In this document: positions 8,114 through 22,428 of the stretch, piece by piece
How the letters are laid out: the number at the start of each line of letters is the position of its first letter
Numbering within the stretch: the stretch's first letter is position 1
Source of the DNA: a bacterium
GTDB lineage: Bacteria > Bacteroidota > Ignavibacteria > Palsa-1295
Assembly (NCBI GenBank): GCA_037143335.1
Contig: JBAWZA010000010.1
Span: 25,326-89,325, forward strand
Direction of reading: 5' to 3'
Length of the DNA: 64,000 nt
The notes under the pieces: generated by a model
The model's input: only the letters and a program-made list of their open reading frames with translations
Database searches by the model: none
What the model was told of the DNA's origin: nothing
Translations under genes and position numbers: made by a program

Positions 8114-9994
8114 CTATTTTACGACGACGATATTTCCTGTCGTGCGAGTATCACCGATAGTGAGTTCGTAGAGGTAAACTCCTGCAGGCTTATTCCCAGT
8201 TTCCCAAGTGATGTCGTATGCTTTCGGTGCCAAGTTACCGAGGTTGATTGAGGTCTCTACTTTGCCGGTCACATCATAGATCTTGAGCTGTGCAACTGCC
8301 GATTTGCGCAAAGTGAAGTTCACGTGAGCCTCATTCCGAGTTGGGTTCGGTGTGACTGAGAGATTGAAAGTGCTCGTGTTCGAACTTGCAACGCCCGAAG
8401 CTCCCGCCGTGAATTTTCTCCCTACACTTGGTGCGCTGAATCCGTTATCATTTTCAGCGCGAACTCTCCAGAAATATGTGGCGCCTGCCTCTAAGTCCGT
8501 AGCAGAGATTGAGAACTCATTCGTAAATATCGTATCACTACGAAAGGTTGTTGCAAAGGTATTATCCTTCGTGACTTCGATCCAATAGTCATTTGCTTGC
8601 GGAGTTGTTTCAACCCATTTAAGGTCGGCATCGGCAGTTCCGATGTTTGCTCCGTCAGCAGGGCTTGTGAGAACTGGTGCTTTGAGCGGTAAGCCGATAG
8701 AGAATGAGAACGTTGCTGAATACTGTCCCCAACCAATAGCATTCTTTGCGCGCACCTTCCAGTAATAGGTGGTACCATCTGTAAGTGTCTTCAATAATTT
8801 CGTCCCACCAGTGAGTGTAGAATCTTTGACAAGAGGTTTCGAGAAATCATTGCTTGTCGAGACTAATAATTGATACTTTGTCGTGCCAGCAATTTTCCCC
8901 CAAGTAATTGTCGCGGTATCAGCATGGACTACTGTATCCGAAATTGGGTATATACCAATCGGCTGATCAGGGAATCCAGTAGAACCTTGAATGAAGTCGA
9001 CTTTCACGTTGAATTGATCAATGGATGCTTGGTGCACAATATCAGCAGTTAACGGACCACCGGATGCGGTGACAGTTACTGTTCCTTCGCCAACGGTAAC
9101 AGGAATTGCATACCCACCAGAGGTTGAGCTAACCGCAGTCCAGCCATTTGATGCAGTAATCGTCACTCCGGGAAGTCCTTCGCCGACATCATAAAAATTA
9201 TTGTGATTATCATCACCATAGACGACGCCTGTGATGAAGATATTTCCTGGGATCGTGCCGAAGTCCTCAGTGGTGATAATTGGACCAACATTGCCATTAC
9301 CTGAGCCGCCATGAATAATACCAATTCCAATTTCAGCGTATGTATAGGTGCCGAAATTAATAAGATTTTCTCTGTGACCTAAACCAGGATTGCCGAAATC
9401 ATATTCGAACTCCATATTGATCTCGTCCAGATCACTACCATACGCAAAAATATTTTCACCTGCATACGTGTAATTAGTATATCCTGCTTTTTGCATCCGT
9501 GTAAAAGGTGACGAGCCATCAGTTGGGGAGTCATGCGCTTGATAGTTATGGTCAAGCATATCCTGACTATGAATTCGTGCGGCGGCAATAATATTTTTAT
9601 TAAACGCAAGTGGTTGTCGTGCAGGATAGCCTGCGAACGCACTTTTTACATCAGCGCGAGTAGGTGAGCCCCATTGCTGGAGCGAGTTGACTAAGTATGG
9701 ATTCTGAGTGTTGAATAACAACAATCCCTCTGCAGGGGGATTGGAGCGGGCTCTATTTATTAGCTCAAGCTCATACTGCTCTTCGGCAGTAGGATCGCCA
9801 TGATCATAGACGTCTAACTGGCCGAGTGGTTTGGTGTTGTGCTTAGCAGAAGTGGGGAAGCCTTTTGCAGTGACGGCAGGAACGAGTTTAGGATGTCGTA
9901 AGGCATCCTGAGTTTGTGCATGAGAGCTTGTAACGGCAAAAGCACCGCAAGCAATGACCGTAAGGAGTAATTTCGAGAAACGCATTGTAATCAT
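8114..9994 (-). CDS. secreted CAP/SCP (PR-1-like) domain protein with Fn3-like repeats and T9SS C-terminal sorting domain
   Basis: Signal peptide. CAP motifs HNYQAHDSP...GENIFAYG...GHRENL. C-terminal YLYELTIGDTRTTGNIVVVK. Start may be the MRFSKLL Met at about 9985. Confidence 0.6.
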   Translation of the reverse strand: MITMRFSKLLLTVIACGAFAVTSSHAQTQDALRHPKLVPAVTAKGFPTSAKHNTKPLGQLDVYDHGDPTAEEQYELELINRARSNPPAEGLLLFNTQNPYLVNSLQQWGSPTRADVKSAFAGYPARQPLAFNKNIIAAARIHSQDMLDHNYQAHDSPTDGSSPFTRMQKAGYTNYTYAGENIFAYGSDLDEINMEFEYDFGNPGLGHRENLINFGTYTYAEIGIGIIHGGSGNGNVGPIITTEDFGTIPGNIFITGVVYGDDNHNNFYDVGEGLPGVTITASNGWTAVSSTSGGYAIPVTVGEGTVTVTASGGPLTADIVHQASIDQFNVKVDFIQGSTGFPDQPIGIYPISDTVVHADTATITWGKIAGTTKYQLLVSTSNDFSKPLVKDSTLTGGTKLLKTLTDGTTYYWKVRAKNAIGWGQYSATFSFSIGLPLKAPVLTSPADGANIGTADADLKWVETTPQANDYWIEVTKDNTFATTFRSDTIFTNEFSISATDLEAGATYFWRVRAENDNGFSAPSVGRKFTAGASGVASSNTSTFNLSVTPNPTRNEAHVNFTLRKSAVAQLKIYDVTGKVETSINLGNLAPKAYDITWETGNKPAGVYLYELTIGDTRTTGNIVVVK

Positions 9995-10183
9995 TGTTCG
10001 AATAAATATCTGTATGAGTTTAGGAACTGATTATAACTCCGATACACACTATTTTGTTCAAATCCGAATGGGTATATTTTGCGTATAAAATTCCTGTATG
10101 CACCTCGTCGTTGTAACTTTTCAGCGTATATTCAGTTTATATAGAGAGCTAAACTTAGAACCAGCTTGTTTAAATTATTGCTA

Positions 10184-13100
10184 ATGAAGCTTAGTCTCCA
10201 GAAAGCATTTTATCTCCTCGCAACTTCGGTTGTCCTCCTTACCTCGACTCCTCTACTTGCTAAGTGGGACACAGTATTCGTCTGTCATTTTGGAGGCTTG
10301 TCCTCTGGTCCAAGGCGTGCCGTGACATGCGGATTTTTTTTCAATGAATTTCAAGGGATAATCGCATCGACAGGTGATGCCGGAATTTTCAAGACCCGCG
10401 ACGGAGGAAAAACTTGGAAACGAGCGAATACTCCTGCCACCTATGTCGGAGATTATACCTCCATATTCATGAAGGATACTCTCAATGGTTGGGCTACTAT
10501 TGAGGAGCCAGCGTTCAATCACGGAGGCGTTGCACAGCAATGTATTTTTCAGACAATTGATGGCGGTCTGAATTGGTCTGCCATTGGACCGAAAAATGAC
10601 TATGCCTGTATTTATCAAACTACGGGCACGCTTGTCGCCACGAGTAGAAACAAAACGAAAAGTGGCACGATTTCACCAGATAATGCTGCCTCATTCCAGC
10701 AAGGGATGCTCGTTGCTACGAACGGAGTTACATTCGTTGATGACCTCAATGGTGTCGCAACAGGATTTGAAAATACGTCGTGGAAACGAACAGTAGATGG
10801 TGGGAGGAACTGGATACCCATTGTGCCTCAAATTGCGATAGAAAGTTGGGGAGTCTATGGCGTCAAGAATACACCCATTTTTTATGCCGCACCCGAAACA
10901 GATCATAATAATCAGTCGAGCGGTGGTTTCAGTTCGGTTTACCGTTCATCCGATTATGGCGCTACGTGGTCTGCTGGGATTCCTCTGACATTTTATACTA
11001 CAGGTCATATCTCTGGGTTCAAGGATGCACATCTCTATATTCAGTTTGAAGATGACAATGCAAATCAAGCGCTGAATTTTGGAATGTTCCGTTCGGATGA
11101 TCAAGGCAACAACTGGATTCCAGTAGGAGGACCAAAACACATTAACGACAAGCGCTTTGTCGTCACGGGCTGTAACGGAGGTGTCGTTTATGCTTTCGAA
11201 AAAAATGGCAATGTCCTCAAAACGCGTGATGGTGGAGATGGCGGGGTGTATGAGCCACCCGTTGAACCACTCATTTATGGCAACCCAGTAGTATTTCAAG
11301 GACCTATTTGTTCGACAAGTGCTGCGACGTTAGAGATCGAAAATTTATTTTGCGGAGACGACTCGATTCTCTCAGCAATTGTGCTTGACTCCAATTCTGC
11401 ACTGATTTCAAGTGGAGCATTAAAGATTTCCACACAGCCTACATTCCCACTTTTTCTTGCATCAGGTGCGAAGGACTCCATCCGCTTTACCTGGGAGCCT
11501 TTGAAATTATTTCATACTGATACGACTGTTTATGTCCGTGTGAAGGTAACGTATTATTCTAAGGTACTGGGCGCGTCGTTCGATACTATTCTTACACTTT
11601 CTCTTCATGCGATTGGCGATACTCCGAATGCAGCCGTAAGCCCATCGCAAATAAATCTGGGGGATTTATCGTATTGCAATCCAGCTGATACTTCTTTCTG
11701 GATAAAAAACATCGGGTGCGATACTTTATATCTTACTGCGACAAGTACTACTGGCTCTTTACCCTATCAATTGTTGGATGCATCTGGCTTGCCTATAAAA
11801 CTTCCGATCATCATCAAGTCTGGTGATTCTACACGGATATTCATGCGAGTCTCATTGGCGGGTACTGGCACGTATTCGTCAACGCTAAAAATTTCACTGC
11901 GCCATCAAGGGATTTATCGTGATACTTCGGTTGCCATCTCGGCAGTGGGAGTTTCGGCTCAGGCGAAGTTCACGCTAAACCCGCCGCGTGACACACTCTT
12001 CGATATTTCGATGACACGTTGTGATTCGCCGAAAACATTTAAGCTAGTAATTTCCAATCCGGGTTGCGAAAATATCAAAGTGCTAAGCGCAACGTTAGTT
12101 GGGGATTCGGCTCCGAACATTTCTCTTCTGAATAGCACCCAACTCCCGGCGGATGTTAACTCTACGAGCACCACTACAAGGAGCTTCTCGGTTACTCTAG
12201 AAGCATCTGCAAAACAACTTGGGATGTACTCAGGCAGCCTAAAGATTACATACCAACTTCCCAATAGACCTGCTCGGGATACAGTAGTGCATTATTTTCT
12301 ACGAGTGAACTATGGATCCCGTATCCTTTCGGCCTCTGTTGATACGATTGACCTCGGCTCGATGAAATTATGCGACACCCGTGATTCATTTATTATTATA
12401 AAAAATATCGGCTGCGATACGATGCAGATTATCTCTGAAGTCATTTCAGGAAATGGAAATTTTACGCTCACTTCGAATCCACTTCCATACCTGATTGAGA
12501 ATGCGTTCGACAAAATAAAATTTCACTTCGAACCTGTAGGAGCAGGTTTGATAAAGGGGGCATTAACGGTATCAACTGTATCAGACTCTCTCCCGATACG
12601 CAAAGTATTTATCGTTGTACATGTGATTCCGACAGATACAATTGCTTTTGATATGCTCCCAACGCGTTCTACGTTTTACGCGGGTGATACACTCACTGTT
12701 CGCCTAATTCCTCGGGATAGTATTTTTGGAAGGGGATTATTACGGTTAGGGTTTGACATCAATTACAACGGCGATTTAGTCACTTTACTCGACCCACCAA
12801 CTGGTGGGAAGTCGGACTACGGCATCCTAATACAAGCGCCTTCCTTCGGCACACCGAAGCATACCACGACAAGAATAGACTTGATCGGAAATCCGACTCT
12901 CGAATTGCCGAAAGGACAGTCTGCGGCGGAGTTCAGATTTTATGTCAGACTCTCGGATTCGATTACGACGGAATTTGCACTCTCGAATATTGAGCTTAAC
13001 GGTAATGACAAAATATACCAACGTTGTAATCTCGGCATTTTTTCCAACAGCCTCGTTTATCAAATCGGTTATCATTGTGGTGATTCATTGCTTGTAAGGT

Positions 13101-19649: not shown

Positions 19650-19723
19650 AAAATAAAATTCCTGAGTAGCTCAGTTGGTTAGAGCATCTGACTGTTAATC
19701 AGAGGGTCGCAGGTTCAAGTCCT
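19650..19723 (+). tRNA. tRNA-Asn (anticodon GTT)
   Basis: Cloverleaf folded by hand. Acceptor TCCTGAG/CTCAGGA. D-arm GCTC-AGTTGGTTA-GAGC. Anticodon stem TCTGA/TCAGA with loop CTGTTAA. T-arm GCAGG-TTCAAGT-CCTGC. Confidence 0.85.
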
Positions 19724-19756
19724 GCCTCAGGAGCAACAAACATCTATTTTGATCCA

Positions 19757-20440: not shown

Positions 20441-20551
20441 AATCGCAGAGAGCCCCACTATATTCCCGCGCTCGCGGAATGACGACGCAGAAAGGGAAAG
20501 AAGAGGGGGAGCATAAAAAAACTATTAGAAGATTTTTTTGTTAATTAAAAA

Positions 20552-20941
20552 ATGGAAAGTAATTTAACCCCTGGTGCAGAGACGTCTAAACTACGTTTTT
20601 TTCTTGATGGGAACGCTGGCCTTACGAAGTCTCATAGAAAAGCACGGAAAGAAATTGCAAAAGTTCTTGCCGAATTCGGAATAAATGTAACTAGTTTACC
20701 AAGTCAAAGAACATTTGATTCATCAGAAATGACTCAATGGGAATATTGTAAAAAAGAAGGAAGAGTAATGATAACCCATAATTCAAATTATCTTCGTATT
20801 GCAGAAAAGGATTTGAATCATCCGGGACTTATTCATTGCAAAATAGAAATGCATTTCGCTGGCGAAATTGTTCTCGGCATATCTGAACTTTATAATGAAT
20901 TATCCCCTGGCGAAATGCGGGGGAAAATTCTTTATATGTAA
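20552..20941 (+). CDS. DUF5615-like PIN-fold (Mut7-C-like) putative nuclease/toxin, orphan
   Basis: 129 aa. RFFLDGN near the N-terminus matches the F-L-x-D-E-N start of DUF5615. EGRVMITHNSNY and NHPGLIHCKIE blocks follow. No DUF433 partner upstream. Confidence 0.45.
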   Translation: MESNLTPGAETSKLRFFLDGNAGLTKSHRKARKEIAKVLAEFGINVTSLPSQRTFDSSEMTQWEYCKKEGRVMITHNSNYLRIAEKDLNHPGLIHCKIEMHFAGEIVLGISELYNELSPGEMRGKILYM

Positions 20942-21203
20942 TTGCTTATAAGAAATTCAGGCGCACTCGAACGAAGATGCACAACTGCGAACGACGAGAG
21001 GGGAATTATTCCCTTCTCTTTTTTCTCAATTCCCTATCATATTGAATCGCTTCAAATTGTTTGGATGATATTAGTCGATCAATGTCAGAAAAAAAATCAT
21101 TTTCTACAATTTGTTTTTGTCTAAGGGACATTGACTTATTTATTTTCTCGATGTGTTCAGCGCGATCATTTAACCACCATGGAAAATTTTCGGGGATAAT
21201 GTA

Positions 21204-21890
21204 TTATTTTCCCTGAATTTTTAATGATCCTTGCATATCAATTTTCGAACCTTCCCAAGGGTTATGTCTTGATGTGAAACCCAGCAAGACAATACCGCAC
21301 ATATTTAAATATATGAATCCTTCTTTCTTTGTACTCCCAAAAGTAAAATCTGTTGATCTCATTAAATAATTATTAATGTTATCGGCGGTCTCAATGGAAC
21401 CAGTGGATTCAATACCGCCCATCAATACCATATGTTGTTCTGTCATCCCAATATCATTTCTTTCTCCTAGCAAAAATTGACGCCACGTTTTTTCAGCTAA
21501 CCTCAATTTCTGAGCATGGAAAAGAGATAACCCTTTATGCCCATTTTCTTTTTTCATCATCGTAAGGATTCTCCAGGTTACTGAAGTCGCAAATTTTAGC
21601 AGCCATTCGCCATACTCAACATCTTGATTATCGTGATTTTGGTAAGGATAGAAAACTTTTTCAGCGTATTTTTTTTCGGACCTTCCAAAAAGTTGTTCGC
21701 AGTCGAAACAGAGTAAGTAGTCTTTGTACCCGTCTTGTGCCCTTTGATTAATTGCCCGAGAATGTCTAAGATAACCAGTAGCTGAAGTTTTTTTTTGCCA
21801 TAGGTTAATAAATTTGGGAATGATATGGCTCTCCTGAAGTTCTTTAACCTCTCGACAAAGTGCACATGTTCCAATATTTTCTTTTGCCAT
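21204..21890 (-). CDS. HNH-motif endonuclease-like protein with an uncharacterised 150-aa C-terminal domain
   Basis: N-terminal CALCREVKELQESHIIPKF...N...DYLLCFDCEQ matches the CxxC-[D/E]HIIP-N-LLCxxC HNH pattern. The remainder has no recognisable motif. ORF-track start 21923; the MAKEN Met at 21890 is preferred. Confidence 0.45.
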   Translation of the reverse strand: MAKENIGTCALCREVKELQESHIIPKFINLWQKKTSATGYLRHSRAINQRAQDGYKDYLLCFDCEQLFGRSEKKYAEKVFYPYQNHDNQDVEYGEWLLKFATSVTWRILTMMKKENGHKGLSLFHAQKLRLAEKTWRQFLLGERNDIGMTEQHMVLMGGIESTGSIETADNINNYLMRSTDFTFGSTKKEGFIYLNMCGIVLLGFTSRHNPWEGSKIDMQGSLKIQGK

Positions 21891-21930
21891 ATTTCGATAA
21901 CCCCTGAAACTCCTACCCCCCATTTTACGT

Positions 21931-21957
21931 TTAGCACTCCCACTAAATGAGTGCTAA
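21931..21957. promoter_or_regulatory. CIRCE operator (HrcA binding site) for groES-groEL
   Basis: Exact TTAGCACTC-N9-GAGTGCTAA, about 80 bp upstream of the groES ATG. Confidence 0.85.
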
Positions 21958-22037
21958 CTTTCAACCCTGAAATTGGGCTGGGAGTTCTCAGAAAACGATG
22001 AAATTTTGATTTTTTTCACCAATAATTACGACATAAC

Positions 22038-22337
22038 ATGAATCTAACACCATTACATGACCGCCTCATCGTCCGGGCTGCTGCTGCGGCGGAGGTCACT
22101 AAGGGAGGAATTATCCTTCCCGATACAGCTCAGGAAAAGCCACAGCAGGGCGAAGTTCTTGCTGTCGGAACCGGCAAAATTGACGACAACGGCAAGACAT
22201 TGCCGATGGCAGTGAAGGTCGGCGATACCGTCCTTTACGGAAAATACTCAGGCACCGAAATCTCAGTTGATGGAGAAGAAGTTCTCATCATGAGAGAGTC
22301 GGATGTTTTTGCAATCGTAGGGAAAGGGAAGAAGTAG
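22038..22337 (+). CDS. groES: co-chaperonin GroES
   Basis: 99 aa. LHDRLIVR...[22 protein letters not shown]. Confidence 0.95.
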
Positions 22338-22428
22338 TCGTTAGTCGTTAGTCTCTAGTCGTTAGCAGATTGTGGTTTTTAGCTTTGGCATTTTTCTGCT
22401 AAAGACTAACGACTAAAGTCTAACGACT
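22338..22428 (+). repeat. long imperfect inverted repeat made of GTCGTTAG / CTAACGAC tandem units in the groES-groEL spacer
   Basis: Left arm TCGTTAGTCGTTAGTCTCTAGTCGTTAGCAG. Right arm CTGCTAAAGACTAACGACTAAAGTCTAACGAC. Roughly 30-bp stem with about 27-nt loop. Confidence 0.55.

Follow-up and report, generated by a model that had tools for sequence, protein, structure and literature searches.

The window analysed here, a stretch of 64,000 nucleotides, carries on its minus strand an open reading frame at 21204..21923, which encodes 239 aa from its first ATG (21923), the stop codon being included in the coordinates. A preliminary description of this DNA had called the same reading frame, and both motifs on which that call was built, CALC-x9-SHIIPKF and LLCFDCEQ, can be read in the translation. 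The CIRCE operator of groES that had been placed beside the gene was also confirmed. The operator, TTAGCACTC-N9-GAGTGCTAA, lies at 21931..21957 (+) upstream of groES, agrees perfectly with the consensus and is unique in the window; it is located between the ORF and the divergent groES (22038), 41 nt from an internal ATG at 21890. A DUF5615 (PIN-like) gene occupies 20552..20941 (+), and an upstream partner of the DUF433 type was not called for it. A GC-rich hairpin followed by a T-run (20996..21018), which resembles a terminator, lies between this convergent gene and the full-length form of the HNH-like gene, overlapping the ancestral stop codon of the latter. The "tRNA islet" that had been reported nearby is a single tRNA-Asn at 19660-19734; 1.3 kb with two genes separate it from the point where the full-length gene ends. 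The DUF5615 gene and the HNH-like gene are the two accessory genes of an islet (20500..21930) whose GC content is 35-36%, compared to 44.3% for the window and 51-52% for groES and groEL; the HNH-like gene itself has a GC content of 35.5%. The segment from the DUF5615 gene to the CIRCE operator is a foreign low-GC islet. A second paralogous copy was searched for within the window, and none was found.

The homologs of the encoded protein are approximately 290-320 aa long, and the same frame runs on for 65 homologous codons beyond the stop codon; therefore, the ORF is not the whole gene. The ancestral gene is on the minus strand, begins at 21890, ends at 21006, and comprises 294 codons. Its start is the ATG at 21890 (MAKENIG...), which is supported by the homologs, and not the ATG at 21923 that had been assumed. 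The truncated product is most likely encoded by 21207..21890 (-), whose start aligns with those of the homologs; this product is 228 aa long (MAKENIG...LKIQGK) and is on record in two assemblies. The premature in-frame stop is a TAA at codon 229 (21204..21206, -), and it differs by a single A-to-T substitution (AAA to TAA) from a lysine codon. In L001 and L002, the two closest relatives, this codon encodes Lys (AAA and AAG, respectively). The in-frame remnant behind the stop (21006..21203, -), whose 65 codons read YIIPENFPWW...RKKRRE and are followed by the ancestral TAA at 21006-21008, shares homology with the C-terminal helices found in intact family members and still carries the family-conserved S255, Q258, S276, and D285. 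The family HMM spans the premature stop in one alignment (profile positions 3-292, E 6e-111). As judged from these alignments, one A-to-T change at codon 229 cut the ancestral gene and thereby removed four C-terminal helices, approximately 22% of the protein. The annotated 228/239-aa protein in this genome is a truncated remnant. The intact architecture described earlier, an HNH motif followed by 150 aa, has to be corrected accordingly, and the C-terminal domain is about 210 aa long in the family.

When the 65 post-stop codons were scanned, no additional stop and no indel were found. Their dN/dS was 0.18 compared with L001 and 0.16 compared with L002, while it was 0.21 between the intact L001 and L002; for the codons before the stop, values of 0.05-0.09 were obtained. 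The post-stop codons remain in frame and still look selected, so the break is recent. Disrupted copies occur elsewhere in the family, with 4 of approximately 33 non-redundant copies affected (those of the window, L034, L038, and L040). An assembly error was considered as the origin of the stop and was rejected, as two assemblies agree on it, but the two do not differ at any of 3,043 bases and may share reads. For this reason, the premature stop could also be a strain polymorphism.

The family to which the gene belongs is large. At E<=1e-3, 5,309 representatives (clusters at 50% identity) were collected, and 1,229 were collected at E<=1e-30. The matches come from Bacteria and Archaea, nearly all of them are full-length single matches, and their lengths are almost all 280-320 aa. 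The clade of the window (window, P0001, and P0002) has Asn at a position that is Lys in 96.5% of the family (K198, P0001 numbering). Searched against Pfam, NCBIfam, and PADLOC, the native ORF matched no model, and the sole result was a faint HlpB match (E 0.035). The PDB sequences were searched by phmmer and by profile, the queries being the ORF, the full-family profile, and an N-terminal profile, and they gave chance-level matches only. A relationship to DUF4238, which has a similar H-x-x-P-x-F motif, would be conceivable; no family member matched its Pfam model at E<=1. Literature searches on HlpB/HNH and on HNH_5/defense returned nothing about this family. None of the curated libraries that were searched (Pfam, NCBIfam, PADLOC, and PDB) has a name for it.

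The genomic contexts of the homologs were diverse. Thirty genome loci from Planctomycetota, Acidobacteriota, Acinetobacter, Paenibacillus, Bacillus, and DPANN archaea were inspected; they had been retrieved with a 10-sequence subset through KxTSATGYLR and are thus biased towards the members with that exact motif. The family is carried by 14 plasmid records, including haloarchaeal plasmids and a B. thuringiensis plasmid with phage lysis genes, and it is further located in an integrase/resolvase element, on a RepA/TraG contig, and at a prophage/T6SS-toxin edge in B. cepacia. An intact member, WP_061885237.1, comes from B. thuringiensis pBT1850055. Many copies sit among ordinary metabolic or housekeeping genes. 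Across 40 loci, no neighbour family was common beyond close lineages. A conserved partner gene was considered and rejected, because the genes found upstream in the two closest relatives are unrelated to each other and missing from the window. Among 118 flanking proteins, there were, in raw counts, three integrases, two DUF559/REase-like proteins, two Phd/YefM, and two DUF5131 (PDC-M30B/M41B), together with single matches to RmrA, DinG, DpdF, QueC, PDC-S15, and CapP; the remainder were housekeeping proteins or proteins of no known type. In PADLOC-DB v2.0.0, the window ORF, P0001, P0008, and P0275 (the last from Shewanella japonica) had no match at E<=0.1-1. A defence role, such as the abortive-infection theme raised for the gene, is at most suggested by these data; no PADLOC model matches, and defence or mobile neighbours are found only sometimes. 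The family is not a universally conserved housekeeping gene, since it is patchy and mobile, its contexts vary, and some copies have decayed.

[quoted passage not shown] The His-Me finger has a beta-beta-alpha core, in which a helix follows two antiparallel strands, and a zinc knuckle occurs in many of the superfamily's members, although not in all. C9/C12 and C61/C64 are the predicted zinc ligands, S21-H22 end strand 1, and E65, where a helix starts, directly follows the second CxxC. Between the two core strands, residues 23-55 (21726..21824, -) form an insertion of approximately 30 residues, an elaborated Omega-loop, which has its own helix and the near-invariant TSATGxLR and PNxRxQDG motifs (R42, N48, R50, Q52, and D53). 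[quoted passage not shown] The candidate catalytic His (H22 in the window, H24 in P0001) terminates the predicted first core strand and is conserved in 98.6% of 284 members (280/284). In the same members, E65 is conserved to 99.6%, R42 and Q52 to 99% each, D53 to 97%, and the cysteines to 96% (C9), 96% (C12), 99% (C61), and 100% (C64). The residue preceding the His is Ser (95%) and that following the second CxxC is Glu (99.6%), so the canonical metal ligands of the His-Me finger, Asp/His ahead of the catalytic His and Asn/His on the helix, do not occur there. The zinc-ribbon HNH pattern noticed earlier is real, and its putative catalytic His is well conserved; as an HNH assignment, it has to be qualified, the motif being non-canonical and below every curated threshold. 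The Asn that had been read immediately ahead of DYLLC does not exist, the sequence being YKDYLLC, and the conserved Asn is N48 in PNxRxQDG (91%).

HNH_5 (PF14279) was the recurring best Pfam match, and its profile positions 1-22/28 were always aligned to the CxxC...SHIIP segment. The native members scored 11.4-14.5 bits and the family consensus scored 15 bits as a whole and 19.2 bits over its N-terminal 85 aa, compared with a gathering cut-off of 27.5 bits. No native sequence reached the gathering score of any curated HNH model (best 14.5-15 vs 27.5 bits). When the insert was removed in silico, 9 of 10 members matched HNH_5 over both CxxC halves (E 4e-5 to 1e-2), with the deletion boundary picked by the analyst, and the insert-deleted constructs scored 16.3-24.7 bits, still below 27.5. 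In control constructs of the consensus, the baseline of 24.7 bits fell to 16.7 bits when the His was changed to Ala, scrambling of SHIIPKF left no HNH_5 match, and changing Cys to Ser left no match at all. Restoring the canonical residues had the opposite effect: the change of Glu to Asn gave 28.7 bits, which is over the cut-off, and the change of Ser to Asp together with Glu to Asn gave 32.3 bits.

The rest of the truncated product, residues 85-228 (21207..21638, -), is the retained portion of an uncharacterised alpha/beta domain with the family-conserved R107, H153, and R178. The AF2 model was confident (pLDDT 91.6, pTM 0.90), and in the fold searches the approximately 210 residues behind the finger matched no solved or viral structure. 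A Pfam search with the C-terminal 205 aa of the consensus returned noise only. The impression that this part of the protein resembles nothing recognisable was thus upheld, both in Pfam, NCBIfam, PADLOC, and PDB and by the structure prediction that had been recommended for it.

From the features described above, the most likely function of the intact members is that of metal-dependent nucleases, with a zinc-knuckle His-Me finger as their scaffold. The four Cys would hold a structural Zn, and the near-invariant His ending strand 1 (H22 here) would serve as the general base. The catalytic metal would be bound by the invariant Glu after the second CxxC (E65), possibly aided by D53/Q52 of the inserted loop. 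The Ser...Glu arrangement would then stand in for the usual pair of Asp before the His and Asn on the helix, and substrate recognition would come from the inserted TSATGxLR/PNxRxQDG loop together with the alpha/beta domain.

A protein that is non-catalytic or differently catalytic is still conceivable, both canonical metal-ligand positions being substituted. The CxxC...CxxC would in that case be just a structural zinc ribbon, and the family would consist of binding factors for nucleic acid or a ligand, or of enzymes with another chemistry, such as a nucleotide phosphodiesterase/transferase using the TSATGxLR/QD/E/R/H set. We consider this unlikely. It would account for the Ser and Glu found in place of the Asp before the His and the Asn/His on the helix, for the HNH profile scores that are all under the curated cut-offs, and for the weak matches that also include generic zinc-ribbon families; it would also suit the near-invariant polar residues outside the finger (R42, R50, Q52, D53, E72, R107, H153, K198 in P0001 numbering, and Q258) and the structural searches, which gave no nuclease match. 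However, the HNH_5 signal requires the His and SHIIPKF and not the Cys alone (a loss of 8 bits upon the change of His to Ala, and abolition upon scrambling), the conserved His terminates the first core strand, as it does in the superfamily, and a Glu carboxylate at the helix position could still bind metal. The reading of the window copy as a broken gene has its own alternative, in which the TAA is tolerated or functional; the 228-aa product would be active when short, possibly with a separate C-terminal peptide, or the stop would be read through. The conserved catalytic-candidate residues are all intact upstream of the stop, a 41-aa ORF with an ATG start (MSLRQKQ..., 21006-21131) covers the last helices, and the post-stop sequence is intact with a dN/dS resembling that of purifying selection, but a very recent mutation predicts an identical dN/dS. 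An alternative genetic code or readthrough was rejected, because TAA is an ordinary stop here, terminating both the ancestral gene and the neighbouring DUF5615 gene. Of the approximately 5,300 family representatives, nearly all have the full length, and the lost segment includes four positions with a conservation of 90-98%. The predicted model is a single compact fold (pTM 0.90), and decayed copies are also seen elsewhere in the family. A functional TAA is therefore judged improbable.

The position next to the CIRCE operator raised the further question of whether the gene belongs to the heat-shock regulon, sharing the HrcA/CIRCE region with groES and acting in stress-induced DNA/RNA turnover. 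The 41 nt between the CIRCE operator and the ATG are too short for a promoter and leader of its own, so that a promoter would probably overlap the operator or lie past it, and the closest relative, L001, also adjoins groES/CIRCE with a homologous leader. Nevertheless, no promoter-like site was seen on the minus strand in 21891-22037, and in L001 a 225-aa gene stands between the CIRCE operator and the HNH-like gene. The gene is also low in GC and recently acquired. Moreover, the adjacency to groES/CIRCE is limited to the window and L001, groES being near none of approximately 40 other non-redundant loci. The groES CIRCE neighbourhood is a property of the variable spot of this lineage and not of the family, and since the adjacency is so limited, heat-shock co-regulation would be a local accident at most; we regard it as very improbable.

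Taken as a whole, the observations are best explained by a recently inactivated, horizontally acquired stand-alone gene, whose kin are likely metal-dependent nucleases and whose role is probably related to conflict; we hold this account to be reasonably probable. The copies are distributed patchily, lie at mobile and variable sites, are low in GC, and have often decayed; for these reasons, a conflict-related role is probable, although speculative, in the sense of defence against, or maintenance of, mobile DNA. A bolder proposal, which is possible but doubtful, is that the family constitutes a new class of stand-alone conflict nucleases (anti-phage, anti-plasmid, or addiction) combining a ligand-swapped His-Me finger (Ser-His...Glu for Asp-His...Asn) with a substrate-sensing domain whose fold is new to solved structures, and that the window copy, in a small variable spot beside groES, has been freshly killed. 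If the intact members are active, the His-Me finger would be able to work with a carboxylate ligand shifted from strand to helix, and one more single-gene nuclease would be counted among the mobile conflict genes. With several thousand sequence clusters, a confident predicted structure, and no counterpart in Pfam, NCBIfam, PADLOC, or PDB, the family represents a clear annotation gap.

Compared with known systems, the family shares with the HNH homing endonucleases a small His-Me finger with zinc and a sporadic, mobile-looking occurrence. It differs from them in that, at the loci examined, no copy lay within an intron, an intein, or a different gene, and in that searches for NUMOD or HTH modules for DNA binding were negative; a homing endonuclease was rejected, as phages are nearly devoid of the family (1 partial match in 50,697 records). 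A likeness to T4 endonuclease VII (PF02945) is seen in the four-Cys zinc site that bridges a hairpin and a helix and in the metal ligand right after the second CxxC, where endonuclease VII has LCNLCN and the family has LLCxxCE. The insert-deleted constructs gave weak Endonuclease_7 matches of 13-17 bits (cut-off 23.6 bits), and the match survived scrambling of the His motif (17.3 bits); the signal therefore comes mainly from the Cys spacing. The motif was not aligned when the N-terminal profile was compared by hhalign with a T4 endonuclease VII sequence, and, unlike that family, the present one has an unrelated size and architecture and no phage context. The single-protein anti-phage or abortive-infection nucleases are similarly stand-alone, patchy, low in GC, and found on plasmids, in integrative elements, and at prophage edges, and some copies of the present family adjoin a TIR-like effector, HEPN, PemK, DUF5615, DUF5131 (PDC-M30B/M41B), RmrA, or DpdF; in contrast to those nucleases, the members tested have no PADLOC-DB v2 match and many copies lie among metabolic genes. 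HNH_5, which has been placed in group 1 of the His-Me finger/HNH superfamily (PMC5714182), differs from the family by the approximately 30-residue insert with its own helix and near-invariant motifs between the strands, by the Ser that replaces Asp/Glu before the His and the Glu that replaces Asn after the second CxxC, and by the approximately 210-aa domain joined to the finger, which is outside the HNH_5 description. As in HNH_5, however, a CxxC zinc knuckle comes first and is followed about nine residues later by x-H-I-I-P at the strand end, the second CxxC lies at the N-terminus of the core helix, and the HNH_5 profile aligns over its whole length after removal of the insert.

The 239-aa ORF at 21204..21923 on the minus strand was present and contained both CALC-x9-SHIIPKF and LLCFDCEQ, as stated in the preliminary description. 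However, it was not the intact HNH protein with a 150-aa C-terminal domain that had been proposed but a truncated gene, whose homologs are about 290-320 aa long. The closest homologs, P0001 (296 aa) and P0002 (294 aa), shared 90% and 80% identity with it, and homologs and nucleotide alignment favoured an ATG at 21890 over the start at 21923. The codon of the stop TAA (21206-21204) encodes Lys in the loci of the closest relatives (AAA in L001 and AAG in L002). Past this stop, the reading frame runs on for 65 codons (YIIPENFPWWLNDRAEH...RKKRRE), which aligned with P0001 and P0002 at their C-termini and are ended by a second in-frame TAA (21008-21006, minus strand) within a terminator-like hairpin; the family HMM spanned the stop as one alignment (E 6e-111). 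The dN/dS was 0.05-0.09 upstream of the stop, and downstream it was 0.18 versus L001 and 0.16 versus L002; L001 versus L002, both intact, gave 0.21. Given these dN/dS values and the absence of any additional stop or indel in the 65 codons, the nonsense mutation is recent.

The "tRNA islet" previously placed beside the ORF was inaccurate, since only one tRNA, tRNA-Asn (19660-19734), was detected nearby by ARAGORN and Rfam, and two genes, one SnoaL-like and one DUF5615, separate it from the ORF. The GC content was 35.5% for the HNH-like gene and 35.9% for the adjacent DUF5615 gene; the two form a low-GC islet, since the window as a whole has 44.3% and groES and groEL reach 51-52%. The DUF5615 (PIN-like) gene (20552-20941, plus strand, 129 aa, annotated MEI8134777.1) had no DUF433-type partner ORF upstream and may be an orphan toxin remnant. 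Unlike in the window, a 70-aa gene directly precedes the DUF5615 gene of L001.

The CIRCE operator reported between the ORF and the divergent groES (22038) was confirmed as a perfect element at 21931-21957 (TTAGCACTC-N9-GAGTGCTAA), the single copy in the 64-kb window (chance expectation 0.01). L001 also adjoins groES/CIRCE. It carries a 225-aa gene (752-1429), without a Pfam or PADLOC match, between CIRCE and the HNH-like gene, whose start it overlaps by 4 bp, and extra PemK/antitoxin genes on the other side. The short leader beside CIRCE was homologous in the two loci. Since the window lacks exactly the 225-aa gene and keeps the leader, this gene was either deleted precisely from the window or inserted precisely into L001. 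The differing gene content makes the groES-adjacent spot a small variable region of the window/L001 lineage.

The groES-groEL spacer of the window is 158 bp, which is long for a groESL operon. An imperfect hairpin (22336-22428, plus strand; 34-nt arms, 25-nt loop; -42 kcal/mol, z -3.45) lies within it, with arms built of the 7-nt units TAGTCGT/TAGTCTC. No second copy was found in the window, and the hairpin is not conserved in L001, since the L001 sequence past groES fails to align. In this organism, a probable relative of the Ignavibacteriota, a simple scan upstream of groES returned one sigma-70-like site (ATGAAA-17-AATAAT, 21998-22026), downstream of CIRCE and about 10 nt from the groES ATG.

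No native family sequence reached a curated HNH threshold. HNH_5 was the recurrent best Pfam match (7 of 40 members and the family consensus), always with profile positions 1-22/28 on the CxxC...SHIIP segment. In the AF2 model (pLDDT 91.6, pTM 0.90; P0001 numbering), a short strand, a CxxC and a strand ending in S-H (17-24) are followed by a helix (28-37) with a loop, a strand (58-63) and a helix starting with CxxC-E (64-86). This predicted order would be that of a zinc-knuckle His-Me finger whose strands are separated by an elaborated Omega-loop; Jablonska et al. (PMC5714182) described the zinc-knuckle His-Me finger, and elaborated Omega-loops as a known variation within the superfamily.

When the insert was deleted in silico, with boundaries of our choice, 9 of 10 members matched HNH_5 over both halves, with E values between 4e-5 and 1e-2 and alignments that ran from profile position 1 to positions 43-54 of 56, and Endonuclease_7 and HNH_2 also matched, more weakly. 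The insert-deleted consensus scored 24.7 bits against an HNH_5 cut-off of 27.5 bits. The H to A change reduced the score to 16.7 bits, scrambling of SHIIPKF abolished the HNH_5 match, and changing every Cys to Ser left no match of any kind. The E to A change left the score unchanged (24.9 bits), E to N raised it over the cut-off (28.7 bits), and E to N combined with S to D gave 32.3 bits. By these controls, the HNH_5 signal is specific to the His motif and the zinc knuckle. Among 284 members, the His was conserved in 98.6% and the Cys in 96-100%, and R42, N48 (91%), R50, Q52 and D53 of the insert were near-invariant. Membership in the His-Me finger superfamily is probable, not proven, since the deletion boundaries were author-chosen.

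The domain after the motif had been said to match nothing recognised, and this held: residues ~87-296 had no match in Pfam (members or consensus) or PDB sequence profiles, and no fold match by Foldseek against PDB and BFVD. In the AF2 model this part comprises a pair of long helices, a sheet region of five strands and, at the C-terminus, four helices, with Y95, W98, F102, S105, W108, R109, W138, H155, R180, K198, Q260 and S278 conserved (P0001 numbering). Lys198 is found in 96.5% of 284 members, and window N196 (21303-21305), P0001 and P0002 have Asn there; P0001 also has Thr at Arg180, which is 89% conserved.

An exhaustive profile search returned 5,309 cluster representatives when the limit was E<=1e-3 and 1,229 when it was E<=1e-30, nearly all of 280-320 aa and matching over the whole profile. 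No Pfam domain was on record for them, and the source names were 'hypothetical protein' except for a single 'HNH endonuclease' in UniRef (Shewanella) and a single 'YlaI' from JGI. When genomes were scanned through the motif KxTSATGYLR, 30 loci were obtained, which belong to Planctomycetota, Acidobacteriota, Acinetobacter, Paenibacillus, Bacillus, Cloacimonadales, Armatimonadales, Binatia and DPANN archaea. By tblastn, 14 of 72,556 plasmid records carried a family member, annotated hypothetical in every case, including a B. thuringiensis plasmid with phage lysis genes and haloarchaeal plasmids; one of 50,697 phage records matched, partially.

All-against-all ORF clustering of 40 loci revealed no neighbour family common beyond close lineages. 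One locus lay in an integrase/resolvase element and one on a contig with RepA/TraG/methylase; the B. cepacia copy lay at a P2-like prophage edge, adjoining a PAAR/Tox-REase-5/Imm52 cassette, and a Cohnella copy had a HEPN-like neighbour. Immediately upstream in L002 was a TIR/NDT-like effector (PADLOC TIR, 3.6e-9). This 291-aa protein (88-963) matched the TIR effector model with its C-terminal half and Nuc_deoxyrib_tr weakly, and had a CxxC motif at its N-terminus; the upstream neighbour in the 80%-identical L002 is thus a different one from that in L001. A DUF5131 gene lay just downstream in Acidobacteriaceae loci L007, L026, L027 and L035, matching the PADLOC candidate models PDC-M30B/M41B at about 1e-100; this succession could be lineage synteny or functional pairing. 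Other copies were plain single-gene insertions between metabolic genes. Four of ~33 non-redundant copies were disrupted: the window copy (nonsense), L038 (frameshift; a Binataceae MAG), L034 and L040. The last two, from Acinetobacter (9989-10336 and 10001-10102), stop after ~115 and ~45 residues; since they break off 76-107 bp before the contig ends, insertion-sequence disruption is suggested.

The family protein is probably a zinc-knuckle His-Me finger nuclease with a putative recognition domain. A rival reading is a zinc-ribbon protein without nuclease function, or an enzyme with another chemistry: the native sequences stay below every curated threshold, whereas the signal needs the His motif as well as the knuckle. 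The patchy distribution, mobile locations, low GC, frequent decay and occasional defence or toxin-antitoxin neighbours would agree with a conflict-related role, either defence or addiction; however, no PADLOC model matched the family. Heat-shock co-regulation, through the region supposedly shared with groES, is the weakest alternative, since groES adjacency is restricted to the window's lineage and groES was found near no other family member examined.

As a further rival, the truncated form may be tolerated or split. A 228-aa product from ATG 21890 is recorded in two assemblies (ENA ERZ4222710, NODE_76, 111,578 bp, a MAG; and a Logan contig of SRR12676966), which may share reads, since they are 100% identical across 3,043 bp. 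All family-conserved residues are kept on both sides of the stop, save Asn for Lys198, and the truncation removes the four C-terminal helices, carrying four positions 90-98% conserved. The best supported reading is that the window gene descends from a mobile gene that stands alone and has lately been inactivated in this copy. The family is sizeable, uncharacterised and worth an experiment; the window copy is dead.

Compared with HNH_5, the family differs at precisely those two positions that canonically provide metal ligands, which are Ser in 95% and Glu in 99.6% of 284 members. We infer a ligand swap, in which the carboxylate would now lie on the helix instead of the strand and the site would still be catalytic. 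None of the libraries searched describes the family, its insert, its Ser-His...Glu arrangement or its C-terminal fold; the motif type of the family is already known.
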